Positions 36,955-63,886 of a stretch of 64,000 nt of DNA are shown one piece after another. Origin of the DNA: an uncultured Chloroflexia bacterium (GTDB lineage: Bacteria > Chloroflexota > Limnocylindria > Limnocylindrales > CSP1-4); contig CAWBLU010000001.1 of assembly GCA_963789725.1 (NCBI GenBank), positions 709,549 through 773,548 of the forward strand. Reading direction: 5' to 3'. How positions within the stretch are numbered: position 1 is the first letter of the stretch; each line of letters starts with the position of its first letter. The translations under genes were made by a program, and so were the position numbers. The notes beneath the pieces were generated by a model that made no database searches, was not told the DNA's origin, and saw only the letters and a program-made list of their open reading frames with translations.

Positions 36955-37665
36955 CTACTTTGCCTTGAGAGCCGCGAGACGCGCCTCCACCTCGGCCGAG
37001 TCCTCCTCGCCCTGAAGGGCCGAGAACTGCTCGTCGAGAGAGTTGGCGTTCACCTCGGCCATTCCGCGGGCCATGGCTTCCTGGCGCCGGACCTTCTCCT
37101 CGTACTGGCTCAACTCGCTCGTGGGGTCCATGACCGAGACGTTCTTGAGGGTCTGCTGGACCTGCGTCTGGGCCTTGGCCATCTTGGCGCGAGCGACCAG
37201 TTCGTCGCGCTTTTGGACCAGCTCGTCGCGGCGGACTCGCATCTTTGTGAGGCCGTCCTTGAGCTGGTTGACGAGTTCAGTCTGCTGGGCGATCTGGGTG
37301 TCGAACGTCTTGACCTGGTTCTCAAAGCTGATCTGGCGACCGAGGGCCAGCTTGGCCAGGTTATCGAACTTGTCCGCTCCGGCCCCGTCCCCGGCGGCTC
37401 GCAATTCGTCCGCCTTCTTCGAGGCGGCCGTGGCCTTGCCGCCCCAGTCGTCCGCGGCCGCGCGCGCTTCCTTCTCGTCGTCCTCGACCATGCGCAGGTT
37501 GCCGATGGTCTGGGCGACGGCGTCCTCGGCCTCGGCCATGTTGTTGGTGAAGTCCCGAACGAGCTGGTCCAGCATCTTCGCGGGATCTTCGGCGCCGTCG
37601 ATCAGGGCATTGATGTTCGCCCGGAGCAGTTGACCGACGCGTCCCAGGATCGTTGTCTGAGCCAT
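36955..37665 (-). CDS. pspA: PspA/IM30 family protein (phage-shock protein A-like)
   Basis: MAQTTILGRVGQLLRANINALIDGAEDPAKMLDQLVRD and coiled-coil throughout. 236 aa. Confidence 0.9.
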   Translation of the reverse strand: MAQTTILGRVGQLLRANINALIDGAEDPAKMLDQLVRDFTNNMAEAEDAVAQTIGNLRMVEDDEKEARAAADDWGGKATAASKKADELRAAGDGAGADKFDNLAKLALGRQISFENQVKTFDTQIAQQTELVNQLKDGLTKMRVRRDELVQKRDELVARAKMAKAQTQVQQTLKNVSVMDPTSELSQYEEKVRRQEAMARGMAEVNANSLDEQFSALQGEEDSAEVEARLAALKAK

Positions 37666-37735
37666 GGATTCGATCTCCTTCTCTGTGTCCTATCTCTTGA
37701 CTGCCGAAGTATTGCGAAGGTTCGAACGAGGTCGC

Positions 37736-45410: not shown

Positions 45411-47165
45411 GTGACAGACGGGGTCCTGGCAGGTGCGGCAATACAGCCCAGAGCGACCGATGCGTCGTCGGGGTCCACCGGCACCGTCTGGGGCGAAGAC
45501 CAGTGGTGGCGCCGCGCGGTCATATACGAGGTGTACGTTCGCAGCTTCGCGGACGGCAACGGCGACGGCATCGGCGACCTCGCCGGCGTGCGCGCCCGAC
45601 TGGAATACCTTGCCGACCTGGGTGTGGATGCGATCTGGTTCACGCCGTGGTACGTGTCGCCGCTCGCGGACGGCGGATACGACGTCGCGGACTACCGCGC
45701 CATCGACCCCGCGTTCGGTTCACTCGGCGAGGCGGAACAGCTGATCGCCGAGGCCCGCGCCTTGGGGATCCGGACCATCGTCGACGTCGTTCCGAATCAC
45801 GTGTCGGACCGGCACCCCTGGTTCGTGGCCGCCCTGGCCGCGGCGCCGGGTTCGCCGGAGCGAGCCCGCTTCTGGTTTCGGCCGGGGAGCGGCGTGAACG
45901 GCGAGCTCATGCCCAACAACTGGGTCTCCAACTTCTCGGGTCCCACCTGGACGCGGACGACCAATCCCGATGGAACGCCGGGGGAGTGGTACCTGCACCT
46001 TTTCTCGTCTCAGCAGCCCGACCTGAACTGGAGCGACCCGGAGGTTCGGGCCGAGCACGAAGCGATCCTTCGGTTCTGGTTCGACCGCGGCGTCGCGGGC
46101 GTCCGTATCGACTCGGCCGCCTTGCTGGTCAAGGACCCGGCTCTGCCCGAGGTCCCGGCTGAGCCGGCGCCCGGCGAGCACCCCAACACCGATCGCGATG
46201 AGCTGCACGAGATCTATCGAGGCTGGCGGGCCGTAGCCGACACATACCCCGACGAGCGGATTCTGGTGGGCGAGATCTGGCTGCCGGACATCGACCGGTT
46301 CGCCAAGTACCTGCGACCGGACGAACTTCACACCGCCTTCAACTTCGACTTCCTCGCCCGACCGTGGGACGCGGCGAGTCTACGGGCCTCGATCGACATG
46401 ACTCTTGCCGCCCACGCTCCGGTCGGCGCTCCACCCACATGGGTCCTGTCGAACCACGACGTCACCCGGCCCGTGACCAGATACGGCCAGGCGGACACGG
46501 CCTTCTCGTTCGCCACCAAGAGGGCGGGTGTTCCCACCGACCTGGCCCTGGGCCGGCGGCGCTCCAGGGCGGCGGCGATGCTGTGCGCCGCCCTGCCGGG
46601 GTCTCTCTACATATACCAGGGCGAGGAGCTGGGCCTGGACGAGGTCCAGGACTTGCCCGCCGAGCAGCGCCAGGACCCGATGTACCACCGTTCCGGCGGC
46701 AGCGATCCCGGCCGGGACGGATGCCGCGTGCCCCTGCCGTGGGCGGGCCTCGAGCCACCCTTCGGGTTCAGCCCGTCGGACGCGACCGCCGAGCCCTGGC
46801 TGCCGCAGCCGAGCCATTGGGCTCGGCTGACAGTCGAGGCGGAGGAAGCCGACCCGGGCTCGATGCTGAGCCTATACCGGGAGATGCTGCGGATTCGGCG
46901 GAGCGACCGCGACCTTGGCCGGGCGCCGCTCAGGTGGCTGCCCTCCGACCCCGAAGTGCTCGCGTTCCGCCGGGGAGACGGCTTCGTCTGCGTCGCCAAT
47001 CTCTCGTGCACTCCTATCGAATTGCCCGCCGAGGCTTCCGTACTGCTAGCCAGCACCGACCTCACGTGCGGCCATCTGCCGTCGGACGCGACCGCCTGGT
47101 TGCGGCCCGACCGGCCCCAAACCGAGGACCACATCCTCCGGTTCCGGAGTGTGGGAGGAGAATGA
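45411..47165 (+). CDS. GH13 alpha-glucosidase / oligo-1,6-glucosidase (AglA-like)
   Basis: AVIYEVYVRSFADGNGDGIGDLAGV...DVVPNHVSDRHPWF...GVRIDSA...EIW are GH13 regions I-IV. Confidence 0.9.
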   Translation: MTDGVLAGAAIQPRATDASSGSTGTVWGEDQWWRRAVIYEVYVRSFADGNGDGIGDLAGVRARLEYLADLGVDAIWFTPWYVSPLADGGYDVADYRAIDPAFGSLGEAEQLIAEARALGIRTIVDVVPNHVSDRHPWFVAALAAAPGSPERARFWFRPGSGVNGELMPNNWVSNFSGPTWTRTTNPDGTPGEWYLHLFSSQQPDLNWSDPEVRAEHEAILRFWFDRGVAGVRIDSAALLVKDPALPEVPAEPAPGEHPNTDRDELHEIYRGWRAVADTYPDERILVGEIWLPDIDRFAKYLRPDELHTAFNFDFLARPWDAASLRASIDMTLAAHAPVGAPPTWVLSNHDVTRPVTRYGQADTAFSFATKRAGVPTDLALGRRRSRAAAMLCAALPGSLYIYQGEELGLDEVQDLPAEQRQDPMYHRSGGSDPGRDGCRVPLPWAGLEPPFGFSPSDATAEPWLPQPSHWARLTVEAEEADPGSMLSLYREMLRIRRSDRDLGRAPLRWLPSDPEVLAFRRGDGFVCVANLSCTPIELPAEASVLLASTDLTCGHLPSDATAWLRPDRPQTEDHILRFRSVGGE

Positions 47166-47256
47166 GGATGGTGTGACGGCCCAGACACGCTATCAGGGGG
47201 ACCCGGGCTCACCCAAGGAGCCCAGAATCGAGCCAGAGATCAAGGTGAGTGAGGAT

Positions 47257-48705
47257 ATGACAGCCAAGCCGAATCGCAGGTTCATATCGACGGCGATGGC
47301 CGCGTTGGCCATTGTCGCGCTGAGCGCCTGCAGCTCCGCAGCCAGCACTCCTACGGCCGCGCCCGCCGCCGCCGACGCCACCGCCGCCGCCGACGCCACC
47401 GCCGCCCCGAGCGCGGATACGCACAAGCCCGTCTCCATTACCGTCGGCGTGCTTCGCCCCGGCGCCACCCAGGAAGCCAGCGACGCCCTGAACCTTCAAA
47501 TCGCCGAGTTCGAAGCCAAGTATCCGTGGGTCACCGTTGTGCCGAACGAGTACAACTGGACCGCCCCCACGTTCACCGCGCAACTCGCCGGCGGCACCCT
47601 GCCGACCGTCTTCAACATCCCGTTCACCGACGGCAAGGGTCTGATCGCCCAGCATCAGATCGTCAACATCGACGCACGCGTCCGCGCTCTCGGCTATGCG
47701 GACAAGTTCAACCCGAACGTCCTGGTCAACGGCGAAGACGCCGATGGCAAGATCTACGCAGTGCCGATCACCGCATACGGCATGTCGCTGACCTACAGCC
47801 GGACCCTCTTCACGCAGGCCGGCCTCGACCCCAATAAGCCGCCCACGACGTGGGATGAAGTCAAGGCCGACGCCAAGGTCATCGCCTCCAAGACCGGCGC
47901 CGCCGGCTTCGCCCAGATGGCCACACAGAACACCGGCGGCTGGCAGCTGACCACCATGACGTACTCCCTCGGCGGGCGCATGGAAACCGTCGACAACGCC
48001 GGCAAGGTCACCGCCACGCTAAACAACAGCTACACCAAGGCCGCCCTCGACTATCTCCACGGTCTGCGCTGGGACGACAACTCGATGGGCGCCACCTTCG
48101 ACTACAACTGGGGCACCATCAACCAGGCCTTTGCCGCCGGCGAGATCGGCATGTTCACGGGCGGATCCGATCTCTACACCGCCATGGTCCAGAACAACGG
48201 GCTCAGGGCCGACGACTACGGCATCACCGTCATTCCGCTCGCCAGCGACCCGAATGCGGGCGTCCTCGGCGGCGGCAACCTCGTCGCCGTCAACGTCCTC
48301 TCGACCGAGGCCCAGCGCGACGCGGCAGTCAACTTCATCGACTTCTACTACATGAACAAGCTCCGAACCCAGGACGGCGCGGTTGCCGATGCCCAGGCCC
48401 TGAAGGCCAACAATCAGCCCGTCGGCGTCCCGGCCCTGCCGATCTTCGACAAGGCAACCTACGACCAGTCTCTGACCTGGATCAAGGACTACATCAACGT
48501 CCCCACGGCCCAGATGACCCCCTTCACCGGCAAGATCAACGCCCAGCCCCTGGTCACCGAACCGCGCTACAGCACCCAGGATCTCTACGCGGCTCTCGAC
48601 CCGGTCGTCCAGGCGGTCCTGACCGACAAGAACGCGGACATCAGCAAGCTGCTCGACGCAGCCAACGCGAAGGTCCAGAAGCTCCTCGACGCCCCGGCCT
48701 CCTAG
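47257..48705 (+). CDS. ABC transporter substrate-binding lipoprotein (alpha-glucoside/maltose type)
   Basis: Lipobox LSAC and an Ala-rich linker. RBS gaggat. Family 1 SBP. Confidence 0.85.
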   Translation: MTAKPNRRFISTAMAALAIVALSACSSAASTPTAAPAAADATAAADATAAPSADTHKPVSITVGVLRPGATQEASDALNLQIAEFEAKYPWVTVVPNEYNWTAPTFTAQLAGGTLPTVFNIPFTDGKGLIAQHQIVNIDARVRALGYADKFNPNVLVNGEDADGKIYAVPITAYGMSLTYSRTLFTQAGLDPNKPPTTWDEVKADAKVIASKTGAAGFAQMATQNTGGWQLTTMTYSLGGRMETVDNAGKVTATLNNSYTKAALDYLHGLRWDDNSMGATFDYNWGTINQAFAAGEIGMFTGGSDLYTAMVQNNGLRADDYGITVIPLASDPNAGVLGGGNLVAVNVLSTEAQRDAAVNFIDFYYMNKLRTQDGAVADAQALKANNQPVGVPALPIFDKATYDQSLTWIKDYINVPTAQMTPFTGKINAQPLVTEPRYSTQDLYAALDPVVQAVLTDKNADISKLLDAANAKVQKLLDAPAS

Positions 48706-50803: not shown

Positions 50804-51964
50804 ATGGGATCGGTCGGGTCGCGGTCGCCGCTCAAGGCCGCCGCGCTGTCTCTGGTCGTGGTCACCGCCCTCGTCGGCTGCGGCAGCTCGGGCGGCCCGG
50901 TCCTCGGCGGTCTGTCCGCTTCAGGAGCGGGCCGGTCTGGCGCTAGCGCATCCGGCGCATCGTCCGTGGAGCCGAGCCCCGTCGGATCGGCCGCCATCGC
51001 GGTCGGAGACGCATCCGATTCACCCGGCGCCGGATCCACAGCGGCGGTCGGCGCGACAGCCACGGCCCCGGCTGCGCCGACGCTCGCCGCCACCGTAGGG
51101 CCGACCGCCACGCCACGGCCGGTGCCGCCCGCCCCGACTCAACCCCCGGCCGCCGGACCGTGTTATGTCTTCCCGTCTTCCAACGTCTGGAACCGCAGCG
51201 TCGCCGGCCTGCCGGTGGCATCCAACTCGGCGGCGATGGTGAACGCGATCGGCCCGGCTGCCTACCTCCATCCGGACTTCGACGCAATCGGCGACGGGAT
51301 CCCGTACAACATCGTGACCGCGGCCACGCCGTCCTACACGGTCGCATTCGACTATGCCGACGAGTCCGATCCCGGCCCGTATCCGATCCCGTCGAGCCCC
51401 CGGATCGAAGCGGGCTCGGACCGGCATCTGCTCTCGCTGGATCTCGGTCGGTGCAAGCTCTGGGAGCTGTACGACGTCCGCAGATCTGGTTCGGCCTGGT
51501 CGGCCGGGTCGGGCGCGGTCTTCGATCTCCGCTCGAACGCCCTGCGCCCGGCAGGCTGGACGAGCGCCGACGCCGCCGGCCTGCCGATCTTCCCGGGCCT
51601 GGTTCGCTACGACGAGGTCCTGACCGGCGCGATCAACCATGCCATCAGGTTCACCGCCCCCAGGACATGCGGGTACATCTACCCTGCGCGCCACCTGACC
51701 GCGAGCTCGTGCTCTACCCTGCCGCCGATGGGATTGCGCCTGCGCCTGAAGTCCTCCGTGGACATCAGCGGCTTCGGCCCGCACGCGCAGGTGGTGCTCG
51801 CGGCTCTCAGGCGCTATGGCATGATCTTGGCCGACAACGGGTCGCCCTGGTACGTCAGTGGTGCCCCCGATGCGCGCTGGAACGATGACGAGATGCACGA
51901 GCTCCAAACCCTGACCGGGGCGGATTTCGAGGTCGTGGACACGAGCGGGCTCCGCAACGGATGA
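50804..51964 (+). CDS. Secreted lipoprotein, hypothetical
   Basis: Signal peptide plus lipobox LVGC, and a Ser/Ala/Gly/Pro-rich linker. The conserved-looking C-terminal domain has no family I can name. Confidence 0.55.
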   Translation: MGSVGSRSPLKAAALSLVVVTALVGCGSSGGPVLGGLSASGAGRSGASASGASSVEPSPVGSAAIAVGDASDSPGAGSTAAVGATATAPAAPTLAATVGPTATPRPVPPAPTQPPAAGPCYVFPSSNVWNRSVAGLPVASNSAAMVNAIGPAAYLHPDFDAIGDGIPYNIVTAATPSYTVAFDYADESDPGPYPIPSSPRIEAGSDRHLLSLDLGRCKLWELYDVRRSGSAWSAGSGAVFDLRSNALRPAGWTSADAAGLPIFPGLVRYDEVLTGAINHAIRFTAPRTCGYIYPARHLTASSCSTLPPMGLRLRLKSSVDISGFGPHAQVVLAALRRYGMILADNGSPWYVSGAPDARWNDDEMHELQTLTGADFEVVDTSGLRNG

Positions 51965-52137
51965 GGGCGTCGGGGCGATGGAGCAGGACCCAAGGTGCGG
52001 TCGGGGAGACTCCGGATAGGGCGTGGAAGCACCACCGGTACTTACGTATGGCTATATCCGCAAGCACGACGCGATACCCTCGGGCTACCGTTCGGCGAAC
52101 GTCAGACCGGCCCTTACTCGTCATCCATGGAGGCTGC

Positions 52138-52653
52138 GTGCTCATCCCGTTCATCGGGTACGCCCGGGGTCGGCGGTTCATCGGTTACGTGGAATGCGAG
52201 GGTGACCGACTCACCGACGTGCTCAACCGGACCGACTCGGTGGTCATCCGGGAGACCTACGTCGAAAGCTTCGAAGACGACACCGTCGTGAATCTCGGGG
52301 ACGGCGAGGTGGACCGGTCGATGCTGTACGCGGTCGAGACGACCGGCGTCCGAGGGGAAGTCACCAGGCGCATCCACACCATCCGCCACCGTCTGCAGGT
52401 CCAGCTCGGGCCCTACACCGCCCTTGGACTCCTTCATTCTCTGCCGGGCCAGCTGCCGCTGCCGCATCTCCATTCGCGCGGCCCCATGATCCCGCTCTCC
52501 GACGCCACCATCGGGTTCGCCTGCCGGGGCTCGATCCAGCTTCGCGATGTCGGCACCCTCATCGTCAACCGCGACATGCTGGACTGGGTTCGCGCCAGCG
52601 ACGACGAAGCCCTGGCCTTCCCGGGCGTGCCCGTCGTCTCGGACCGGGCATAA
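52138..52653 (+). CDS. Hypothetical protein (~171 aa)
   Basis: High GC3 coding signal from about 52110. GTG at 52138 is preceded by ggagg. No recognisable motifs. Confidence 0.4.
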   Translation: MLIPFIGYARGRRFIGYVECEGDRLTDVLNRTDSVVIRETYVESFEDDTVVNLGDGEVDRSMLYAVETTGVRGEVTRRIHTIRHRLQVQLGPYTALGLLHSLPGQLPLPHLHSRGPMIPLSDATIGFACRGSIQLRDVGTLIVNRDMLDWVRASDDEALAFPGVPVVSDRA

Positions 52654-55258: not shown

Positions 55259-56749
55259 TCAGCTGTCGTCGCCGGGCGGCTCGCCCGGAAGGGATAGCGT
55301 GAAGGCGGCGCCGTGGCCAGCTTGTGCCGGCTCGAGCCAGAGATCTCCGCTCATGGTCCGGAGCAACTGCCGCGACACATACAGGCCCAGGCCCGTGCCG
55401 TCGGCGCTCTCGTGACCCTCACCTCTGCTGAAACGGATGAATAGCCGCTCGCGGTCGCCCTCGGGGACGCCCGGCCCGTGGTCGACGATAGTGACGTGGA
55501 GGCGGTCGATGGTTTCGTCGGCCTGGATGTGGGCCTCGACTCTGCCACTGCGACCGCCGTACTTCACGGCGTTGTCGAGCAGCGCCCACAAGACCTGGTC
55601 CAGCTGGTCCGGGTCCGCCACGCCAAGCCAACCCGGAGCCCCGTCGTGCACCTCGAAGCGGGCATCGGCCGCGTTCAGGGCTTCCCACGCGCGCCGGATG
55701 CGCGGACCCAAGGCGATGACTTCCGCCTCGGGTCTCAGCACGCCCGCTTCCAGCCGCGTCACGGTCAGGAGCTGGCGCACGAGTCGCGTCAAGCGCTCGG
55801 TCTGCTCGGCCACGATTTGCAGGCGGCGGTCTCGGGCGGCTTCGTCCGATGCCGCTCGGAGCTGATCCACGTAGGCGCGAATACTGGTAAGGGGCGTTTG
55901 GAGGTTGTGGCTGACGCCGCGCAGGAACTCATCCTTGGCGGCGTCCAGTTCGAGCAGCCTCTCGTTCTGGTTCTCTATCTGCCCGAACAGTTCCGCATTC
56001 CTCAACGCAACGCCGACCTCACTGGCGAACAGGTCGAGCAGGTCCTGGTCTGCCCGCTCCCAACCACGAGTTGCGGGCAGATGCCCGCTGAGAACTCCGA
56101 GCGTCTCGCTGCCGGCCCGAAGCACGACACGCACGGGCCGTGGGTCTCCCGGGATCGCCTCCTCGACCGGAACGTCGACCGCGTCGACGAGCTGGAGCCG
56201 GCAATCGATCAGGCCGTAGATCGAACAGGCGTCGAATTCGGCTCGGGCCGTCAGGGCGGGAAGTCCCTGTGCCGGGTTGTACGTCGCGATCGCCCGAAGG
56301 AGCGACCCCAACTCGCGGTTGCGGCGCTGGGCGTCGGCGGCGATGCGGTTATGGCTCTCCGCCAGCCGGGCGAGCTCGTCGTCCCCGGTGATGTGGATCG
56401 GGGGGCCCGGTTCGCCCGCCGCGACCCTCTCGACCGCGGTCGTGATCCGGCGCAGCGGCACCGTCAGCCAGGAGACCGACATGGCTGCCGCGAGGAGGCC
56501 CAGGAAGGCAGCCGCGACGATCGACGCGATCAGGAGCGGGACCATCACGCCGGCGTCGGTGTACAGGCGCGCAGCGACGACGATGCCGCCGAAGACCGCC
56601 ACGGGGAGTACGGCGGCGGCGATGAGGCCGGTCGTGAGCAGGATGCGGAATGAAGGTCCGGTTCCCCCGGCTTCCCCGCGGGCGGGCTCGCCGTCGCGAC
56701 TCTTCCGCGGATCACGCATTTGCGGGGCTCGCGACGAGTCGATAGCCAA
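55259..56749 (-). CDS. Sensor histidine kinase (2 TM, HAMP, GAF-like, HisKA, HATPase_c)
   Basis: H-box FLRGVSHNLQTPLTSI, N box LLDNAVKYG, and G boxes DHGPGV and GTGLGL. Confidence 0.85.
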   Translation of the reverse strand: MAIDSSRAPQMRDPRKSRDGEPARGEAGGTGPSFRILLTTGLIAAAVLPVAVFGGIVVAARLYTDAGVMVPLLIASIVAAAFLGLLAAAMSVSWLTVPLRRITTAVERVAAGEPGPPIHITGDDELARLAESHNRIAADAQRRNRELGSLLRAIATYNPAQGLPALTARAEFDACSIYGLIDCRLQLVDAVDVPVEEAIPGDPRPVRVVLRAGSETLGVLSGHLPATRGWERADQDLLDLFASEVGVALRNAELFGQIENQNERLLELDAAKDEFLRGVSHNLQTPLTSIRAYVDQLRAASDEAARDRRLQIVAEQTERLTRLVRQLLTVTRLEAGVLRPEAEVIALGPRIRRAWEALNAADARFEVHDGAPGWLGVADPDQLDQVLWALLDNAVKYGGRSGRVEAHIQADETIDRLHVTIVDHGPGVPEGDRERLFIRFSRGEGHESADGTGLGLYVSRQLLRTMSGDLWLEPAQAGHGAAFTLSLPGEPPGDDS

Positions 56750-57419
56750 CGCCCCGGACGGTGATCAGATGGACCGGCCGGTCGGGGTCGACTTCGATCT
56801 TCTGGCGCAGCCGGCGCATCGACACCCAGACGTACGATGGCTCGGCCTCCTCGGTCTCGGTCCACCCCCGCGACAGAAGGGTCTCGGTTGGGACGATCTC
56901 CCCAAGGTTCGCAGCGAGCGGCTGGAGCAGGCGTGCCTCCGTCGGCGTCAGCTGGACTTCCTTGCCGGCGACAGTGGCCGACCGGCGATGCAGGTCCAGT
57001 GTGAGGTCCGGGCCAAGGACCACGGATCGGTGTGGGATCCGATCGCCAAGACGTCGCAAGACACGTTCTATTCGAGCCCTGAGCTCGGGGTAGTGATACG
57101 GCTTGGAGACGTAGTCCTCGGCCACTTCGTTTAGCAGGCGGGCCTTGCTGTCGGCCGTGTCGATGGCGGACAGGACGATAATCGGCAGGTCTGCCTCGGC
57201 TTTGATTCGTCGGGCCAGTGCCAGACCGTCGTAGCGAGGCATCGTCAGATCGAGCAGGATCAGGTCGGGCCAGCCAGCCTCGAGGCGGCGCACGGCCTCC
57301 GCGCCATCACGGGCGGTGGCCACTTCATAACCATCGTCCCGCAGCTGCTCGGACAGAACGACCAGCAGGCTGGGGTCGTCGTCCACGAGCAGGATCCTTC
57401 GCGGCCGTTGGTCCATCAT
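56712..57419 (-). CDS. Response regulator, OmpR/PhoB family
   Basis: ILLVDDDPSLL...DLILLDLTMP plus winged-helix LTPTEARLLQPL...VRGVGYRL. Overlaps the kinase start. Confidence 0.9.
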   Translation of the reverse strand: MMDQRPRRILLVDDDPSLLVVLSEQLRDDGYEVATARDGAEAVRRLEAGWPDLILLDLTMPRYDGLALARRIKAEADLPIIVLSAIDTADSKARLLNEVAEDYVSKPYHYPELRARIERVLRRLGDRIPHRSVVLGPDLTLDLHRRSATVAGKEVQLTPTEARLLQPLAANLGEIVPTETLLSRGWTETEEAEPSYVWVSMRRLRQKIEVDPDRPVHLITVRGVGYRLVASPANA

Positions 57420-57543
57420 CCCGCCGATATGCCTCCCCCGAGCACCACGCGGCGCGGGGCGGTCGGACCGAGTATAGGCCTGAGCCGGGGACCGGCGTGG
57501 GGTCGAGGATCGCGCGCGGCTCGCCGTCGGGCGGTCGGTCGCG

Positions 57544-58404
57544 CTAGTCTGCCGAGCGGTCGAAGTAACGGCAGCGCAGCGCGATCGGGCAATGCTCACA
57601 GTCGGGGCGTTGGGCGTGGCAGGTCCGGCGCCCGTGGCTGATGAGCGAGACGTGGGTCTCGTACATCTGGTCTGGGCGGAGCATCGCCAGGAAGTAGTCG
57701 TGGGCGGCGTCGGCCTCGACCTTCGGCGGTATCAGGCCGATCCGGTGGCTGACCCGGTGGACGTGCCGATCGACCGGCATCAGCGGCGTCCCGAAGCTGA
57801 AGAGAAGTACCACCGAAGCCGTCTTCTTGCCGATGCCGGGGATAGCGGCAAGCCAGTCGCGAGCCTCGAGTGGCGGCTTCGTCGCCAGGAAGTCCAGGGA
57901 GTATCCGCCGCCGTTGGTGGCGATTGCCTGTAGAGCGGCCTGGATGCGCGGTGCCTTCTGGTTGGCGAGCCCGCCCGGGCGGATTACGTCCGTCAACTCG
58001 GCTATGGGCGCCGCCTCAACCGCCGCCCAATTCGGCGCCGGCAGGTCGGGAAGGCCTACCCCACCCCAGCCCGGGAACTTTCGGGGTTCTGTCGAAGCGC
58101 CGTCCGGGGCTGGCGCGGAGGGATATGCGTCCCGAAGCGCGCCGAAGGCGACCTCGGCGTTGATGTCGGCGCTGTTGGCCGAGAGAATAGTCAGGATCAG
58201 CTCGCTGATGGGGTCGAGGCGTCGGTGCCACACCGGGCGGCCGTTGGCTTCCGCGAGCCGGTCCAGGACGAATTGGGTGAGGCCCGGCCGCTTCTTCTCG
58301 AGTTGCGCAGCCCAGCGCCGAGCCACCTGGTCCGGACTCGGTTTCGTCTTGTGCCGGGCCGTGGCTTTCCGGGCGGCCGCCGGGACCTTGCGAGCCGGCG
58401 TCAC
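57544..58404 (-). CDS. nth: Endonuclease III (HhH-GPD, [4Fe-4S]) with basic N-terminal extension
   Basis: HhH-GPD IPGIGKKTASVVLLF and cluster CHAQRPDCEHCPIALRC (C-X6-C-X2-C-X5-C). GTG 58404 overlaps the glycerate kinase stop (GTGA). Confidence 0.85.
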   Translation of the reverse strand: MTPARKVPAAARKATARHKTKPSPDQVARRWAAQLEKKRPGLTQFVLDRLAEANGRPVWHRRLDPISELILTILSANSADINAEVAFGALRDAYPSAPAPDGASTEPRKFPGWGGVGLPDLPAPNWAAVEAAPIAELTDVIRPGGLANQKAPRIQAALQAIATNGGGYSLDFLATKPPLEARDWLAAIPGIGKKTASVVLLFSFGTPLMPVDRHVHRVSHRIGLIPPKVEADAAHDYFLAMLRPDQMYETHVSLISHGRRTCHAQRPDCEHCPIALRCRYFDRSAD

Positions 58405-59591
58405 GCCACGGGCTCGCGCAGGTTCAGCCGGGCCGATCGCCGCCGCCCGACGAGCGTTCCTACCTGCACGATGCGGGCCAGTCTTTCGCCCGCGGCCGCA
58501 ACCAGGGGCCCGGCCTGGGCCATCGCGTCCTCCAGCGTCATAGGCTGGTCCGGAACCGGCACGGCCAGGGTTCCTATCGCCGCGAGTGCCTCGACGCCCT
58601 CCGGGGTGACGCCGCCGCCCATGGCCACGCACGGCACCCCGGCCGCGGCCGCGCGCCGCGCGACTCCGAGGGCCGTCTTGCCGTACGCGGTTTGCTCGTC
58701 GATCCGGCCCTCGCCCGTTATGACGAGGTCCGCGGTCGCCAGTCGCTCGTCGAAGTGGGTCTCCTCCATGACCACGTCAATGCCCGGCACCAGATCGAAA
58801 CGGCGCATCCGCGGAGCCAGGCACAGCAGCCCGAAGCTTGTACCTCCGGCCGCACCGGCGCCCGGAATGGCGCGGGCTCGAGTCCCCGACGCGGTCTCCA
58901 GCAGATCGGCGTAGTGCTCCAGCCATGTCTCCAGGGCGACGACATCTTCCGGCCATGCTCCCTTTTGCGGAGCGTAGACCGCGGCAGCGCCGCGCTCGCC
59001 GAGAAGAGGATTGGTCACGTCGCAGGCTATGCGCAACTCCAGTTCTCCCAGCCTGGGGTCCAGCGACGCCAGGTCCACGGCGGCAAGGTCCGGGATCGGC
59101 CCGGGCAGCCGGCCGCCGGTGCTGCCGCGGTACCAGACACCGAGGGCGTTGAGGAGTCCGGAGCCACCGTCCGTCGTGGCGCTGCCGCCCACGCCCATAA
59201 GGACATGCCGAACGCCCGCATCCAGGACGGCGACCAGTACCTCGCCCGTGCCCCCGGTCGTGGCCGCCAGCGGGCTGCGCGGCTCGCCCTCGGGCAGGCG
59301 CGACAATCCTGATGCCTCGGCCAGCTCCACGGCGGCGCGCTTCCCGTCGGCGGAGAGAAGCCAGCGGGCCGTGAGCGGGCGGCCCAGCGGGTCATGAGCG
59401 GGGCACTCCTGCCACTCCCAGCCGCCCGTTTCGGCGATTGCCGCCAGTGTGCCCTCCCCGCCATCCGCGAGAGGGGCCAGGATCAGTTCATCGTCCGGAC
59501 GGGCTCGAGACCAGCCGTCGGCCAGGGCTCTGGCCACGTCCACGGACGACAGCGACCCCTTGAATGAGTCCGGGGCAAGCAGAACGCGCAA
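58401..59591 (-). CDS. Glycerate kinase (GarK/GlxK family)
   Basis: N-terminus RVLLAPDSFKGSLSSVDVA matches the family's APDSFKGS signature. TTG at 59591; everything 5' of it in the ORF is Arg-rich junk. About 396 aa. Confidence 0.8.
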   Translation of the reverse strand: MRVLLAPDSFKGSLSSVDVARALADGWSRARPDDELILAPLADGGEGTLAAIAETGGWEWQECPAHDPLGRPLTARWLLSADGKRAAVELAEASGLSRLPEGEPRSPLAATTGGTGEVLVAVLDAGVRHVLMGVGGSATTDGGSGLLNALGVWYRGSTGGRLPGPIPDLAAVDLASLDPRLGELELRIACDVTNPLLGERGAAAVYAPQKGAWPEDVVALETWLEHYADLLETASGTRARAIPGAGAAGGTSFGLLCLAPRMRRFDLVPGIDVVMEETHFDERLATADLVITGEGRIDEQTAYGKTALGVARRAAAAGVPCVAMGGGVTPEGVEALAAIGTLAVPVPDQPMTLEDAMAQAGPLVAAAGERLARIVQVGTLVGRRRSARLNLREPVA

Positions 59592-59611
59592 CCGATCGTC
59601 GCGAGAGCCGC

Positions 59612-61657
59612 TCAAGACTCGACTCCGCCAGCCCCGGCCCCGAGCGGCGTGGCCTCGCCGTTCTCGACCGGATCGCCGGCGGCGCTCGATGCCGCGACGT
59701 CCGGCGGCGCCGCCGGACTGGCCGGCGCAACCCCGCCCTGCTCCGCGGCCCCCGCCATCCGGCGCCTCTCCAGATACTCGGGGATGCCGATCATCGGTGG
59801 TCGCTCGTGGTCCGCCAGTTCGATCACTTCCAGGCCCAGGCGACCCTGGCCCGATCGTGGCAGTTTCATGGTCGAACCCGCTTCGGCCAGGAGTGGAGTC
59901 TTGCCTCTCTCCTCCAGCCGTTTCATGACGGCCTGGAGGATGACGAAACTCATCCGCGACAGGCCCTCCAGCTCCTGGTTGCGGTGAACGCGCCGCTCCA
60001 GGTCCACCTGGCCCAGGCCCTCGAGGCCGACTCTGGCCGAGACGTCGATGAGGTGGCCGATCTCCACGGCATAGCTCGTGAAGAACGGGATCGTCTCGAG
60101 CAGGCTCCGGCGGCCCGCGTACTCTCCGGCAAGCGGCTGGATCAGGCCCGACAACTCGGGATAGAAGAGGTTGATCAGCGGCCTCGCCACGAGCTCCGTG
60201 ACGCGCCCGCCGCCGCCTTCCTTGAGGACGCCGCCTTCGACGATCGGCCGGCGGTAGTAGCCCTTGACGTACTGGATCCGTTCTTCGGCGATGAGCGGCC
60301 CGAGCGTGCCGTAGACCATCCGAGGATGCCAGTTGTGGACGTCCGTATCGGCCCACACGATCAGGTCGCCGCAGGTTTCATACAGGCTTTTCCAGAGCGC
60401 CTCGCCCTTGCCTCGATAAGTGCCGTAGCCCGGCAGCACCTGCGAATGCACCGCCACCCGAGCGCCCTCGGCCGCGGCGATCTCGCGAGTCCTGTCCTCC
60501 GAATCGGAGTCCATGACGAGCAGCTCGTCGATCAACGGGTGGCGCTCCATCAGGTCGCGCCGGGCCCGCCGGACGATGGCTCCGATCGTCGCAGCCTCGT
60601 TGAGCGCCGGCAGCACGAGGCTGACGGTCAGGCCGGCCTGCTCCTTGAGGCGGACCAACCTGTCGAGGTCGCTGAATTCGCGGTGATGGAAGTTGGATTC
60701 GCCGAACCAGCGCTCGACCCGAAGCGGTACCGCCCGGGAGTCGATGGCGGCTCTCTCCGCCGCGGCCAGGGTCTCGGCTGCGGCCTCGAGTCGATCGAAG
60801 GTCGCCTCGCCGATCGCCTCACGGGTCTTGACGACTACGACGGTGTTCTTGGACTTGGCCGCGATGGCCTCCGGCAGGGCCCCGAACAGGAACGTCTCTC
60901 CGCCGTCGATCGCGGGCGCGGCCGCGGCGCCCATGACCACCACGTCCGCCGTTTCCGCGGCCTTCATGATCGCGTTGCGGACGTTCGTGCCCTCGACGAC
61001 GGCCTGCTCGACGTGGCCGCTGGCGTGCTGGCGGATGAAGTGGGCCAGGGCCCGTTCGGACTGTCTGCGGATGCCCTCGGGAATCCCCGGTGGAACCACG
61101 TGAAGGGCTATTGCCTTGCCCCCACCGTGGCGGGCCATCGCGTCGGCGAAGTGGAGCGCCATCTCGGCGTGTGGACCGCCCCGGATCGGCACCAGAACGC
61201 GGCCCATCTCCGCGGTGCCGCCCTGCTTCACGACTGCGATGTCGCACGGTGGCTCGCGAACGACCTCGTCGATCGTGGAACTGAAGACCGGCGGCTGCGC
61301 GCCCGGCTTGGCCGCCGACGGCTTGCCGCCCCAGCCGAAGATGATCAGGTCGGCGTCCATCTCCGCGGCCGCCTCGACGACGCCTTCGGCCGCGCGACGC
61401 CCGATTCTTACGATTGGGTGGATCGTCACTCCCTCCGGAGTGAAGTCGAGGACGCGCTGCAGCAGACGCCGGGCGTGGCGCGCGCGGTTCGCTCCCTCCG
61501 AGAGAGGTGTGCCTTCCGGCACCTCCACGATGCCCAGGACGGTCAGGCTGCCATTCTTGCGGTCCATGACTGCCGATCCCAATCGGACCAGTTCCTGAGC
61601 GGTCAGCGGGTTAGCCACCGGGATCAGGATTCGGCAAGGCAGCGGTGCTCTGATCAC
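59612..61657 (-). CDS. Fusion protein: two tandem USP-like (adenine-nucleotide alpha-hydrolase) domains + GT81-type glucosyl/mannosyl-3-phosphoglycerate synthase (GpgS/MpgS-like) domain
   Basis: USP-like blocks ILIPVANPLTAQELVRLGS...DLIIFGWGG and RVLVPIRGGPHAEMALHFAD...VVVMGAAAAP. The C-terminal ~330 aa read LTVSLVLPALNEAATIG...LLVMDSDSEDRT...GKGEALWKS...GGGRVTELVARPLINLFYPELSGLIQPLAGEYAGRRSLL...VHRNQ, which I recall as GpgS-like. 681 aa. Confidence 0.75.
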   Translation of the reverse strand: MIRAPLPCRILIPVANPLTAQELVRLGSAVMDRKNGSLTVLGIVEVPEGTPLSEGANRARHARRLLQRVLDFTPEGVTIHPIVRIGRRAAEGVVEAAAEMDADLIIFGWGGKPSAAKPGAQPPVFSSTIDEVVREPPCDIAVVKQGGTAEMGRVLVPIRGGPHAEMALHFADAMARHGGGKAIALHVVPPGIPEGIRRQSERALAHFIRQHASGHVEQAVVEGTNVRNAIMKAAETADVVVMGAAAAPAIDGGETFLFGALPEAIAAKSKNTVVVVKTREAIGEATFDRLEAAAETLAAAERAAIDSRAVPLRVERWFGESNFHHREFSDLDRLVRLKEQAGLTVSLVLPALNEAATIGAIVRRARRDLMERHPLIDELLVMDSDSEDRTREIAAAEGARVAVHSQVLPGYGTYRGKGEALWKSLYETCGDLIVWADTDVHNWHPRMVYGTLGPLIAEERIQYVKGYYRRPIVEGGVLKEGGGGRVTELVARPLINLFYPELSGLIQPLAGEYAGRRSLLETIPFFTSYAVEIGHLIDVSARVGLEGLGQVDLERRVHRNQELEGLSRMSFVILQAVMKRLEERGKTPLLAEAGSTMKLPRSGQGRLGLEVIELADHERPPMIGIPEYLERRRMAGAAEQGGVAPASPAAPPDVAASSAAGDPVENGEATPLGAGAGGVES

Positions 61658-63069
61658 GGCGTCACCTCGGGGGCGGCGGGAGCCGCTTGTTCATGCCAGT
61701 GCTTGACGAGGTACGGCTTCAGGAGCTCGAACTCGCGCGCCTGACGTTCTACCCGCTCCTCGGCCTGTTCCCCGGACAGCCGGCGGTTCTCGATGATGAA
61801 AGCGCCGACTCGACCGAAATAGATCGGCACGAAGGCGGCGACGAGTCGCTCGAGTGTGAGGTTGCCGAAACTCGCGCTAACGAGCAGGTCGTAGAAGACC
61901 CTGGCCCACAGGTCGTCCGGGAAGTGGAAGGACGCGACGGAATCCGAGAGCTCGTCGGTGGATGGCAGGCCGCTCCGGCCGGCGGAGCCCTCGCCGGACT
62001 CGGCGTCGATGCCGAGCCTGTGGGCCGCGGCCTCGGCCAGCTTCCCGGCCTCCTCGGCGAGGAGCATGACGTTCTCGTAGTTGCCCTGGCGGAGCATCTG
62101 CTGCCACGTGTCGCACATGGTCAGAGAGCCGGCGTGGAACTGCGCCAGCAGCCGCAGCGTGTTGACCTCGAGCGGGGGCGGGTCGGCGTACCGCTCGAAG
62201 CCGTAGACCGGAACCTCGCGACTGCCCACGATCGGCAGCCAGCGCTCGGCATTGTCGCGAGCCATCGTCAGCAGGGTCCCGACGACCTGGCGGAACATCG
62301 GACCGAGGTCCGAGCCGGGGTCCTTGGGGTCGTGGATCTTGGTCCCGAGGCGGGTCTGGCAGACGGCGAAGCCGCCGGTCAGGGCCGTCGTGGTCATCCA
62401 GATGTCAATGCCGAAGCGCGAAACGTCGTCGGTCCAGCCCTCCTGGGCGAGGTAGTGGCGGATCAGGTCCCCGCTGACGCCGAAGTCGCCGCCGATGGGC
62501 TGGCGGATTCGGTGCCCATAGAGAGCTCGCGTGACAGGGTAGGTGACCGTGTTCGTGATCGTGCCGTCGTACTTGTGGCGCGCGTACAGAGGCGCCACGT
62601 AGTCGTAGCCGCCCTTGAGGATCGGGCCGGCCAGGAGTTCGATCCATTCCGGCACGATCGATCGGAGGTCGGAGTCGACGACGACCAGAGCCTCGACCTC
62701 CAGGGCAGCCGCCATCTCGAAGAGCGTTCTGAGGGCGGCGCCCTTGCCACCGATGCCGTCGACCTCGGGGTAGGTCAGGCTGACGCGCTGGAGGCGGTTC
62801 GTCGGGCGGACGAGCAGGATCTCCTCGACGTACCCCGGCGGTTCGGTTTCGACGACGACTCGCTGCGTGCCGTCCGGCGAGCCCGCGTCGGCGTTCACCA
62901 GGATCGGGCGCAGGTCGGGGAAGTACTGGACCAGGCCGGCCTGAGCGGCCCGAACGACGTGGCCTATCGTTGCCGCGTTCCGATAACTCGGTATGCCGAC
63001 CATGATGTCGGCGCAACCGAGCCGAGCGATCTCGTCCTTGATTGCGGGGGTAAGGGCGCTCGACGGCAT
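61654..63069 (-). CDS. GT78-like glycosyltransferase resembling mannosylglycerate/glucosylglycerate synthase (single-step, glycerate acceptor)
   Basis: From ATG 63069: IMVGIPSYRNAATIGHVVRAA...GKGAALRTLF...VVDSDLRSIVPEWI...QPIGGDFGVSGDL...FGIDIWMTTTAL. These align by eye with blocks I recall from Rhodothermus-type MGS: GKGDGMNTAL, YDADITSFGPDWI, QPLGGELLM and WGIDTLYTFV. The 5' 440 bp of the ORF are Ser/Arg-rich junk. Confidence 0.6.
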   Translation of the reverse strand: MPSSALTPAIKDEIARLGCADIMVGIPSYRNAATIGHVVRAAQAGLVQYFPDLRPILVNADAGSPDGTQRVVVETEPPGYVEEILLVRPTNRLQRVSLTYPEVDGIGGKGAALRTLFEMAAALEVEALVVVDSDLRSIVPEWIELLAGPILKGGYDYVAPLYARHKYDGTITNTVTYPVTRALYGHRIRQPIGGDFGVSGDLIRHYLAQEGWTDDVSRFGIDIWMTTTALTGGFAVCQTRLGTKIHDPKDPGSDLGPMFRQVVGTLLTMARDNAERWLPIVGSREVPVYGFERYADPPPLEVNTLRLLAQFHAGSLTMCDTWQQMLRQGNYENVMLLAEEAGKLAEAAAHRLGIDAESGEGSAGRSGLPSTDELSDSVASFHFPDDLWARVFYDLLVSASFGNLTLERLVAAFVPIYFGRVGAFIIENRRLSGEQAEERVERQAREFELLKPYLVKHWHEQAAPAAPEVTP

Positions 63070-63196
63070 CACGGGCACCGTACCACGTCGGGGGCTTTCC
63101 GGGGCATCCTGCGGCGCAGTTCCAGCCGGGCATCCATTAGCCCGCCGTTGGCCATCGGCGTCCTGCCGAGGCGACACGTTGGTCGATCGGGGACGT

Positions 63197-63886
63197 CTAC
63201 TTTGGCGGCATCGGCAGGATGGACCAGTCGTCGTTCCTCGAGTTGGGAACGTAGCGGCTGTTCGCGGCCTTGTACACCAGCGCCCCGAAGCCGGCGCTGC
63301 GCCAGGTGGTGATGAAGCTGCCGATCGGCGGCCTGACGAACGGCGTGATCCGGACGAGGTCGCCCGGCTCGAGCGCACCGTCGAGGAGCCGCTTGCGCTC
63401 CAGCAGGGGAAGGTCGAGCAGCCGCGAGCCGTCGATCGACAGGAGGTCGACGGCGACGAACGCGATGGGTCGATCAGGATCGAGCCGGCGTTCCGGAGCC
63501 GCCATTCGGGCAACGCGGCTGCCGACCAGGAACTGGGTCATCATCTGGCCGGTCGTCGGAGCGGCGGGCTCCTGGACCGTCGTCCCTTCGGTGGGCTGGG
63601 TCGGCTCGACCGTGAGGAATCCGTCGAGAATCAACTCGCCCGCCAGCGCAGACGAGGCGATCGCGGCTGCGACCTCGGCGAACTCGGCGGTGCAGTCGAC
63701 CCCTTCTTCGTCGACGAGTGTCGCTGCCGCGCCGTCGTAGCGGACGAGGACGCGGACTCCGCCCCACCTGGGCTCGATGACCGCGTCGCGCGTCCGGCTC
63801 CCGCCGCGACCGCAGCGTTGCGGTCGCCAATCGGCCGGATCGCTCGGCGGCTGCGGCGGCGGTGGATGTCGGCGGAAGATCGGCAT
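63197..63886 (-). CDS. ATP-dependent-ligase-like adenylation domain protein with degenerate motif I (possible inactive ligase homolog), no OB domain
   Basis: IEPRWGGVRVLV aligns to the ligase motif I EPKWDGFRALV but with the catalytic K changed to R and D to G. Motif-like blocks follow: LDGFL, VDLLSIDGSRLLDLPLLERKRLL and GALVYK. About 229 aa. Confidence 0.45.
   Translation of the reverse strand: MPIFRRHPPPPQPPSDPADWRPQRCGRGGSRTRDAVIEPRWGGVRVLVRYDGAAATLVDEEGVDCTAEFAEVAAAIASSALAGELILDGFLTVEPTQPTEGTTVQEPAAPTTGQMMTQFLVGSRVARMAAPERRLDPDRPIAFVAVDLLSIDGSRLLDLPLLERKRLLDGALEPGDLVRITPFVRPPIGSFITTWRSAGFGALVYKAANSRYVPNSRNDDWSILPMPPK

Follow-up and report, generated by a model that had tools for sequence, protein, structure and literature searches.

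Glucosylglycerate, a stress solute associated with salt stress, desiccation and nitrogen limitation, serves as the primer of the mycobacterial methylglucose lipopolysaccharides. We know of essentially no account of protein-level control of its synthesis. Fernandes and co-workers reportedly described in 2007 a ggs-gpgS-gpgP cluster in Persephonella marina covering both routes to glucosylglycerate. Universal stress protein (USP) domains are among the commonest stress-associated domains, yet how they act at the molecular level is poorly understood. Often, they are merely dimerisation modules. In ATP-binding members of the MJ0577/UspFG type, the motif G-2x-G-9x-G-(S/T) lies between beta4 and alpha4, and c-di-AMP-binding USP domains of the KdpD type carry the motif SxS-X20-FTAxY. 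In Halomonas elongata, the USP TeaD modulates the ectoine TRAP transporter TeaABC.

In the window, that is, the whole stretch of 64,000 nucleotides analysed, one gene encodes two USP domains followed by a glycosyltransferase domain of the glucosyl-3-phosphoglycerate synthase (GpgS) type. A sequence-only reading of the locus had called this architecture undescribed. For the literature searched, the statement holds: no paper describing a GpgS-USP fusion was found, co-mentions of 'glucosylglycerate' and 'universal stress' being judged by title and abstract, and a 2026 paper on Limnocylindria genomics contains no mention of glucosylglycerate, osmolytes or USP. Public databases, on the other hand, already auto-annotate hundreds of the fusion proteins as GpgS or as USP.

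Architecture and distribution of the fusion protein

The gene (59612..61657, minus strand; supported by the ORF call and by Pfam and NCBIfam matches) encodes 681 amino acids. All its modules are read from the same strand. According to Pfam, USP domain 1 (USP1) spans residues 9-144 (61226..61633) and USP domain 2 (USP2) residues 152-278 (60824..61204). They are followed by an inter-domain linker, residues 279-313 (60719..60823), for which AlphaFold predicts a long helix at 286-306 (pLDDT 53-64). The GT81 catalytic domain of the GpgS/MpgS type occupies residues 314-625 (59783..60718), as delimited by NCBIfam, PDB matches and conservation. The C-terminal end, residues 626-681 (59615..59782), consists of a helix (626-641) and a tail (642-681). 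These last ~40 residues are Ala/Gly/Pro-rich and poorly conserved, have a pLDDT below 50, and are probably disordered.

The domain scan proposed with the sequence-only reading placed all three domains above their curated cutoffs. Scored separately against Pfam Usp (PF00582, gathering cutoff 24), residues 9-144 reached 48.7 bits and residues ~152-278 reached 44.7 bits, in agreement with the claim of two USP-like domains in the N-terminal half. The C-terminal GT81-like domain claimed for the 681-residue protein was recovered by NF010496, the NCBIfam equivalog model for 'glucosyl-3-phosphoglycerate synthase', with a score of 368.3 bits (cutoff 262) over residues 314-625 and model positions 5-305 of 307. 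The contrast drawn with a stand-alone GpgS of ~320 residues was also borne out, the matched solved GT81 chains being 326-344 residues long.

The same architecture was found well beyond this genome, which answers the search suggested at the outset. More than 120 clusters at 90% identity carry it, all with PF00582 and PF00535 and all 640-707 residues long. Among GTDB species-representative genomes, 429 matches were obtained, 80 loci of which were kept, each aligned over at least about 630 residues of the 681-residue query. At 50% identity, ~42 distant cluster representatives carry the fusion, and it is retained down to 34% identity across Chloroflexota classes. Named members belong to Limnocylindria, Anaerolineales and Dehalococcoidia, along with one Acidobacteriota metagenome-assembled genome (MAG); members are represented only by uncultured MAGs and metagenomes. 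Since the fusion is kept at such low identity and the fused catalytic domains group together in a tree, selection on the fusion seems to be at work.

These data also bear on the possibility that separate usp and gpgS genes were merged by a frameshift, an assembly error or a gene-calling error. Such an artefact is conceivable a priori in a high-GC genome, where spurious long ORFs are common. Against it, both halves pass curated models in a single frame, GC3 is 0.85 throughout the ORF, and the full-length AlphaFold (AF2) model is confident (pLDDT 85.6, pTM 0.82). The decisive point is that the continuous ORF, linker included, recurs in independent clusters and in genomes and metagenomes assembled independently of one another, of which there are hundreds; the merger is therefore excluded, its residual probability being negligible. 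The ORF is thus confirmed as a genuine three-module protein, USP-USP-GT81, as the sequence-only reading had supposed.

The catalytic domain and its operon

The catalytic domain is closely related to solved GT81 enzymes. In PDB sequence searches, it matched 3f1y, the mannosyl-3-phosphoglycerate synthase (MpgS) of Rubrobacter xylanophilus, with E 1.9e-80, and mycobacterial GpgS with E ~1e-60. The closest solved enzyme is that of Rubrobacter (43% identity), and the actinobacterial GT81 enzymes as a group lie at 40-43%. In Foldseek comparisons, the C-terminal half of the model superposed on Rubrobacter MpgS/GpgS (3f1y/3kia) with a TM score of 0.91-0.93 and an rmsd of 1.7-1.8 A, and on the GpgS of M. 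hassiacum and M. tuberculosis with TM scores of 0.85-0.93. The motifs GKGE, DxD, GGGRVTE, QPLxGEY and HRN align with those of the solved enzymes (3f1y; 7pdo). From the M. tuberculosis GpgS structures, we take GGGRVTE, GEY and HRN to be the acceptor and metal ligand stretches and DxD to be the metal/NDP-sugar motif. The catalytic residues K417, D437-T-D439 (DxD), G484-R485-V-T487, E512 and H558-R-N560 are kept in 100% of 120 close relatives.

The domain would move a hexose from an NDP-sugar onto 3-phosphoglycerate and so open the two-step route to glucosylglycerate. Which sugar it uses is uncertain, because the PDB entry of the nearest solved enzyme names it a mannosyl-3-phosphoglycerate synthase, and PMC3240985 describes this enzyme as an MpgS/GpgS with dual specificity. 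The product is most likely glucosyl-3-phosphoglycerate, mannosyl-3-phosphoglycerate being a possible but less likely one.

In Limnocylindria, the usp-usp-gpgS gene is translationally coupled to a glycosyltransferase gene upstream and a glycerate kinase gene downstream. Start and stop codons overlap by 4 nt at both junctions: the GTG start shares GTGA with the stop of the upstream gene, and the probable TTG start of the kinase gene shares TTGA with the TGA stop. Operon synteny holds in 79/80 and 77/80 of the kept loci. The kinase (glxK, 58401..59615, minus strand, probably starting with the TTG at 59615) matches Pfam Gly_kinase at 2.3e-119 and TIGR00045 at 364 bits (cutoff 168). A scan for promoters and terminators of the operon gave nothing above chance. 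Among the ORFs scanned at ~11.9-63.9 kb of the window, neither a GpgP phosphatase nor a glucosylglycerate hydrolase was found.

The upstream protein (61654..63072, minus strand) is an MGS/Ggs-like GT-A glycosyltransferase of 471 residues with a C-terminal helical domain. No curated Pfam or NCBIfam model matched it above its cutoff. The best structural match of its model is mannosylglycerate synthase (2y4k/2bo4; TM 0.72-0.74 over ~450 columns, at only 14-16% identity), and its homologues are labelled 'glucosylglycerate synthase' by JGI. The modelled fold thus resembles the single-step glycosyl-glycerate synthases MGS and Ggs, which suggests a putative activity on unphosphorylated glycerate. Assignment as MggA, the enzyme that extends glucosyl-3-phosphoglycerate, was rejected, as MggA belongs to GT4 (PMC3736172) and the upstream enzyme has a GT-A fold of the MGS type.

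In some proteins, this upstream enzyme (upGT) is itself fused to GpgS. P0127, with 1061 residues, is a natural triple fusion, upGT-USP-USP-GpgS, in which the USP pair lies between both enzymes. P0176 and P0168 represent upGT-GpgS and GpgS-upGT fusions that have no USP domains. Further gene fusions of GpgS, namely GT4-GpgS and GT4-GpgS-GH13, were also observed.

Because the fused gene is coupled to both an MGS/Ggs-like enzyme and a glycerate kinase, one operon in Limnocylindria may hold both solute routes together with an enzyme that interconverts their acceptors, from glycerate to phosphoglycerate. Outside Limnocylindria, the neighbours are different or unrelated, so this operon logic is lineage-specific. 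In an Anaerolineales MAG, the fused gene stands within a GT4-GT4-uspgpgS-His_Phos_1 cluster, an arrangement that fits a pathway derived from glucosylglycerate.

The tandem USP module and its pockets

USP1 and USP2 share 23% identity (E 0.003). Searched as a single sequence, the N-terminal half had no meaningful match in the PDB, and a family profile of 21 sequences was needed to reach solved USPs. This profile matched 1wjg (1.5e-11), Rv2623 (2e-11), TeaD (1.9e-8) and MJ0577 (2e-6). The modelled N-terminal half superposes on the tandem USP Rv2623 (3cis) over ~300 columns (TM 0.66, E 1.5e-11), and the model also matches UspE (4r2k). Judged by these models, the two USP domains of the N-terminal half pair within the chain as a pseudo-dimer, in the manner of the tandem USPs Rv2623 and UspE.

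The sequence-only reading had proposed that this tandem is a classical sensor of adenine nucleotides (ATP, AMP or cAMP) coupling osmolyte synthesis to energy or cAMP status. Homology favours the proposal, the N-terminal half being related to the ATP-binding USPs TTHA0895, Rv2623, MJ0577 and TeaD. The ATP-binding signature comprises the motif G-2x-G-9x-G-(S/T) and an Asp after beta1 (PMC3673472). Neither alignment nor a regular-expression search found the motif in either USP domain, and the Asp is replaced by A15 in USP1 and by R159 in USP2; on this point the claim of adenine-nucleotide sensing fared poorly. At the motif site, USP1 reads G108-WG-G111-(14x)-S126-S127 and USP2 reads G243-AA-A246-(12x)-G259-A260. 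USP2 has thus retained the first and last Gly of the motif (G243 and G259), which speaks for a nucleotide site, and has lost the middle Gly and the Ser/Thr. The position after G259, where the phosphate-binding Ser/Thr would stand, is Ala in 115 of 120 close relatives and most often Pro (14/41) in distant members.

In USP1, conservation rests on P13, a V44-E-V-P ... L52-S motif, the invariant R63 and W109, and the pocket residues show no conservation across the family, which also argues against adenine sensing. Its loop 112-125 is a Pro/Ala/Gly-rich insertion of low pLDDT. The regular expression for the ATP motif did match 14 of 172 relatives, but all these matches fall in this low-complexity USP1 loop, off the aligned position. 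Some distant members, on the other hand, carry G-W-K-G-(9x)-G-A-T in USP1, which is close to canonical. Moreover, ATP is present in crystal structures of USPs whose motifs are degenerate, namely TTHA0350 domain 2, KPN01444 and TeaD (PMC3673472). Since such domains can bind ATP, nucleotide binding by the USP domains becomes less likely, not impossible. All in all, a classical adenine-nucleotide sensor seems an unlikely role for the tandem. As for c-di-AMP, the regular expression SxS-X20-FTAxY matched neither the query nor the N-terminal 320 residues of any of 452 proteins, non-family sequences included.

The invariant or near-invariant positions of the N-terminal half are P13, R63, R159, G160, G161, G243 and G259. 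Because R159, G160, G161, G243 and G259 are among them, conservation is focused on the ligand-loop region of USP2. Where ATP-binding USPs carry Asp-Gly-Ser, USP2 has the near-invariant loop R159-G160-G161-P162. Aligned with 1wjg and Rv2623, R159 occupies the place of the Asp in their 'DGS' loop, and Arg is found at this position in 120/120 close and 36/41 distant members.

The tandem might instead be purely structural, serving oligomerisation or docking, for example to the Ggs-like enzyme in a glucosylglycerate metabolon, with no ligand sensed. Tandem USPs do make dimers of pseudo-dimers (PMC3673472), and the degenerate ATP motif fits such a role. So does the overall pTM, which suggests a fixed arrangement of the domains, and in P0127 the USP pair looks like a spacer or scaffold between the enzymes. 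Nevertheless, P0176 and P0168 join the two enzymes with no USP domain, which makes the pair unnecessary for joining, and distant lineages retain the fusion with no Ggs-like neighbour. Furthermore, the near-invariance of R159-G160-G161, which occupies the canonical ligand loop, is more what one would expect of a binding site than of a generic interface. A purely structural role is thus improbable.

Proposed function and comparison with known systems

The reading that best joins these observations is a three-module GpgS whose USP tandem acts as a built-in regulatory and/or assembly module with a non-classical USP signal site; we would put its probability at roughly 60%. The helical linker would join the tandem-USP pseudo-dimer to the catalytic domain, and the tandem would adjust GpgS activity post-translationally to a cellular signal. 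The allosteric control suggested by the sequence-only reading is thus kept as our inference. The signal is probably not read through the classical ATP site. The pocket of USP2 is the best-conserved surface of the N-terminal half, and the Arg-Gly-Gly that stands in place of the ribose-binding Asp would suit a non-canonical, possibly anionic (phosphate or carboxylate) ligand or a fixed domain interface. A more specific and rather tentative version is that the USP2 pocket binds an anionic effector other than ATP (for example glycerate, 3-phosphoglycerate, a phosphorylated second messenger or the product), which would switch the fused glycosyltransferase allosterically. If true, this enzyme would provide the first demonstrated case of a USP domain acting in cis on the activity of an enzyme, and compatible-solute synthesis would be switched directly at the post-translational level in a phylum that is abundant in soil and freshwater but uncultured. 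The biochemical function of USP domains, long unclear, would also become accessible to tractable assays.

Since the fusion is natural, ancient and widespread and its enzyme has a simple in-vitro read-out, it would be a clean system for the study of USP sensing and signal transmission. The fusion suggests post-translational regulation of osmolytes in Limnocylindria and other Chloroflexota, which are major uncultured bacteria of soil, peat and freshwater. In addition, the operon, with its single-step and two-step synthases and glycerate kinase, and the Rosetta-stone fusions predict a functional pairing of both routes.

Compared with described enzymes, the fusion protein has the same catalytic domain as the GpgS of M. 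tuberculosis and M. hassiacum (Rv1208 type) and the Rubrobacter MpgS/GpgS, with 40-43% identity and shared motifs. These actinobacterial GT81 enzymes, however, are 320-390 residues long and have no N-terminal regulatory domain, whereas the fusion protein carries ~310 extra N-terminal residues. The tandem USPs Rv2623, UspE/YdaA and TTHA0350 likewise hold two USP domains per chain as a pseudo-dimer, but they stand alone, whereas the present pair is part of an enzyme. Both ATP motifs are canonical in Rv2623 (PMC3673472) and degenerate in the fusion protein, whose USP2 has Arg-Gly-Gly for Asp-Gly-Ser. TeaD (PDB 3hgm), a homologue detected by the profile, likewise ties a USP domain to compatible-solute homeostasis. 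It is nonetheless a separate ATP-binding protein that acts on uptake, in contrast to the covalent fusion to a biosynthetic glycosyltransferase described here.

As for the operon, its likeness to the P. marina cluster, and to Rhodothermus MGS, lies in the co-location of a single-step synthase-like glycosyltransferase with GpgS. The P. marina cluster has no USP domains, and Limnocylindria have a glycerate kinase in place of an adjacent GpgP. GpgS is often joined to pathway enzymes, as in the GT4-GpgS, upGT-GpgS, GpgS-upGT and GT4-GpgS-GH13 fusions. These are unions of one catalytic module with another, whereas the USP fusion adds a non-catalytic module of the signalling type.

Distribution and domain layout of the fused protein

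The usp-usp-gpgS gene (59612..61657, minus strand) encodes 681 aa, exactly where the sequence-only reading had placed the ORF, and its GC3 of 0.85 is typical for real genes of this ~69% GC window. A Pfam scan detected two Usp family domains and a GT2-type glycosyltransferase. Scored piecewise, residues 9-144 (USP1) reached 48.7 bits and residues ~152-278 (USP2) 44.7 bits, against a Pfam gathering threshold of 24 bits. The NCBIfam equivalog NF010496 (glucosyl-3-phosphoglycerate synthase) matched residues 314-625 with 368 bits (cutoff 262). The scan thus bore out the proposed USP-USP-GT81 layout and its sizes. The nearest solved sequences are MpgS of Rubrobacter xylanophilus (3f1y, 1.9e-80) and mycobacterial GpgS (~1e-60); solved MpgS/GpgS chains have 326-387 aa, and the alignment is confined to the C-terminal half of the protein.

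The fusion is conserved. The search in other genomes that had been proposed found it in more than 120 clusters at 90% identity, all with PF00582 and PF00535 (640-707 aa, 72-100% identity to the query), and in 429 relatives in a scan of one genome per GTDB species. The best 80 of these 429 all belong to Chloroflexota MAGs, many of them listed as Candidatus Limnocylindrales or Limnocylindria. HMMER, run exhaustively against 1.84 billion 50%-identity representatives, returned 5027 matches; of the 106 top matches with a near-complete catalytic domain, 42 were USP-USP-GpgS proteins over their full length, no more than 34-54% identical. Named carriers are Limnocylindrales, Anaerolineales (MBE7554046.1), Dehalococcoidia (HEY8492197.1, HEX5939099.1) and unclassified Chloroflexota, as well as one Acidobacteriota MAG (MEM9552613.1, on a 597-kb contig). 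All family members come from uncultured organisms. A frameshift artefact merging separate usp and gpgS genes is excluded by the conservation of the continuous ORF across these independent clusters and genomes and the 42 distant representatives. In a crude NJ tree, the fused catalytic domains group together, apart from a stand-alone GpgS clade, a pattern compatible with a single old fusion event and its retention.

GpgS and USP are each well known, USP domains occur within multidomain proteins, and the fusion is no surprise in kind. The claim of an undescribed architecture stands as far as the literature is concerned: a search retrieved no paper on a USP-GpgS fusion or on GpgS regulation by a fused domain, and the fusion goes unmentioned in a recent paper on Limnocylindria genomics. 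It does not extend to the databases, where these proteins are already auto-labelled as GpgS or as USP. The fusion offers a clean, widespread natural system to test the effect of USP domains on an enzyme and gives a hint of the way in which a stress solute is controlled in dominant uncultured Chloroflexota.

An AlphaFold2 model built from a 46-sequence alignment was confident (mean pLDDT 85.6, pTM 0.82), falling to low confidence only within USP1 (loop 113-122), in the long helical linker (281-310) and beyond residue 642, in the tail. Its C-terminal half superposes on Rubrobacter MpgS/GpgS (TM 0.91-0.93, rmsd 1.7-1.8 A, 43% identity) and on GpgS of M. hassiacum and M. tuberculosis (TM 0.85-0.93). 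The catalytic site is intact: the GKGE, DxD (D437-T-D439), GGGRVTE, QPLxGEY and HRN strings have aligned counterparts in the solved enzymes, and none of them varies among 120 close relatives. From sequence and model, the domain is predicted to be an active GT81 enzyme. Its donor may be glucose or mannose, since the nearest solved relative, deposited as mannosyl-3-phosphoglycerate synthase, is described as a dual-specificity MpgS/GpgS (PMC3240985). The distant fused representatives keep D439 in 31/41, R485 in 28/41 and H558 in 27/41 cases; some of them may have an altered or lost activity, or else these residues may be misaligned.

Fold and ligand motifs of the USP half

The N-terminal half of the model has a tandem-USP fold, superposing on Rv2623 (~300 columns, TM 0.66, E 1.5e-11) and also on UspE. 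A simple sequence search of the PDB with this half alone gave no match; its family profile matched the solved USPs TTHA0895 (1.5e-11), Rv2623 (2e-11), TeaD (1.9e-8) and MJ0577 (2e-6).

ATP-binding USPs are defined by G-2x-G-9x-G-(S/T) and an Asp after beta1, although some with degenerate motifs nonetheless bind ATP (PMC3673472). In USP1, G108-WG-G111 is followed by a 14-residue Pro/Ala/Gly-rich loop and S126-S127-T128, and A15 occupies the Asp position. USP2 reads G243-AA-A246-(12x)-G259-A260, and in alignments its R159-G160-G161 falls on the Asp-Gly-Ser loop of 1wjg and Rv2623. A regex for the canonical ATP motif matched nothing in the query and only low-complexity loops in relatives; the KdpD-type c-di-AMP motif was not found by regex. 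The sensing of ATP, AMP or cAMP suggested by the sequence-only reading is unsupported, because both USP domains lack the defining motif and the beta1 Asp. Since degenerate USPs can bind the nucleotide, a classical nucleotide sensor is unlikely rather than dismissed.

The USP1 beta4-alpha4 loop (residues 112-125, window 61283-61324) carries a Pro/Ala/Gly/Lys-rich insertion, KPSAAKPGAQPPVF, with pLDDT <50, which only the Limnocylindria group has. In distant members the spacer is 9 residues long, and some of them read G-W-K-G-(9x)-G-A-T, which is near-canonical.

Conservation in the N-terminal half, compared over 120 close and 41 distant members, is highest at R63 (161/161), R159 (156/161), G160, G161, G243 and G259, and the USP1 pocket positions drift. 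The residue after G259, Ser/Thr in the canonical motif, is Ala in close relatives and most commonly Pro in distant ones (14/41). The Asp to Arg charge reversal at the strictly conserved, variant USP2 loop suggests that the loop binds another, anionic ligand or forms a conserved interface. That the pair is purely structural, or a scaffold, is considered improbable.

The operon and its proposed role

Three translationally coupled genes make up the operon, with the fused gene in the centre. It begins with a GTG that shares bases with the upstream gene's stop codon (GTGA), and GAGG lies a few bases 5'. Upstream lies an MGS/Ggs-like glycosyltransferase gene (61654-63072, minus strand; 471 aa, start confirmed by an identical 471-aa database entry), and downstream the glycerate kinase gene glxK (58401..59615, minus strand; Pfam 2.3e-119, TIGR00045 above its cutoff). 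Related loci (best 80 of 429) share this order in 79/80 and 77/80 cases. The ORFs that were scanned, between about 11.9 and 63.9 kb of the window, include no GpgP-type phosphatase.

No curated family model passed for the upstream glycosyltransferase, which weakly resembles GpgS (54 bits; PDB ~1e-7); many of its relatives carry the JGI label "glucosylglycerate synthase". Its AlphaFold2 model (pLDDT 85.8, pTM 0.87) best matches Rhodothermus mannosylglycerate synthase (TM 0.72-0.74) over both the GT-A and helical domains, with GpgS structures next, and predicts a fold that resembles this single-step glycosyl-glycerate synthase. Elsewhere, fusion proteins join the upstream glycosyltransferase to GpgS in either order, namely ahead of USP-USP-GpgS (P0127, 1061 aa), ahead of GpgS (P0176) and behind GpgS (P0168). 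Such Rosetta-stone evidence suggests that the two work together.

The USP pair would modulate or organise GpgS activity upon a cellular signal, read through the USP2 pocket and not the classical ATP site, and the operon would send glycerate or 3-PGA into glucosylglycerate via two routes. We give this overall account a probability of about 0.6.

Across the 80 loci, the upstream glycosyltransferase (69-87%) is at least as conserved as USP-GpgS (71-85%). Further multi-enzyme GpgS fusions (P0172, P0181, P0218, P0233, P0241) comprise GT4+GpgS, GpgS+GT4 and a 1383-aa GT4+GpgS+GH13 (alpha-amylase family) protein; the partners are probably MggA-like or other extension enzymes.

Neighbouring genes within and beyond Limnocylindria

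In sister Limnocylindria lineages, a GNAT acetyltransferase gene (170-210 aa; Acetyltransf_1, 3.5e-14) lies between usp-gpgS and glxK (loci L037:7926-8495, L038:7932-8447, L055:8026-8658 and L066:8160-8759); it is absent at the window locus and may acylate the solute or regulate a pathway protein. On the same strand, downstream of glxK (55259-58632, minus), lie genes for an HhH-GPD DNA glycosylase (syntenic in 69 of the 80 loci), a response regulator (in 52) and a histidine kinase (in 49). Synteny also extends upstream of the operon, to an ATP-dependent DNA ligase-like gene (63197-63886) in 67/80. Elsewhere in the window, a PspA/IM30 membrane-stress protein gene (1.2e-38) adjoins that of a 707-aa TPM-domain protein (36955-39859, minus), another stress-related pair, and an FG-GAP/ASPIC-UnbV repeat protein gene adjoins a DUF6851 and vanadium-chloroperoxidase-like (VCPO_2nd) gene (26152-29762, minus). 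Three plus-strand ORFs inside or beside a GH13/ABC sugar-transport cluster (47149-48705, 50804-51964 and 51961-52653; 518, 386 and 230 aa; GC3 0.81-0.88) had no Pfam match at E<=0.001.

Outside Limnocylindria the neighbours change, so the operon is a lineage-specific setting around a constant fusion. No recognisable pathway gene lies beside the fused gene in one Dehalococcoidia MAG or in the Acidobacteriota MAG. In one Anaerolineales MAG the fused gene is part of a GT4-GT4-uspgpgS cluster; a truncated gene for a histidine phosphatase comes next, and a GH13 amylosucrase-like gene is close by. The phosphatase gene (locus L084:8962-9610) begins at the usp-gpgS stop codon and has the RHGET motif of the mycobacterial GpgP type; it is called as only 59 aa, with the frame degenerating beyond, which reflects either pseudogenisation or misassembly. 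MggA belongs to the GT4 family (PMC3736172) and mycobacterial GpgP a histidine phosphatase (PMC3240985), and with its GT4 and histidine-phosphatase genes of these types the Anaerolineales cluster resembles mannosylglucosylglycerate loci.
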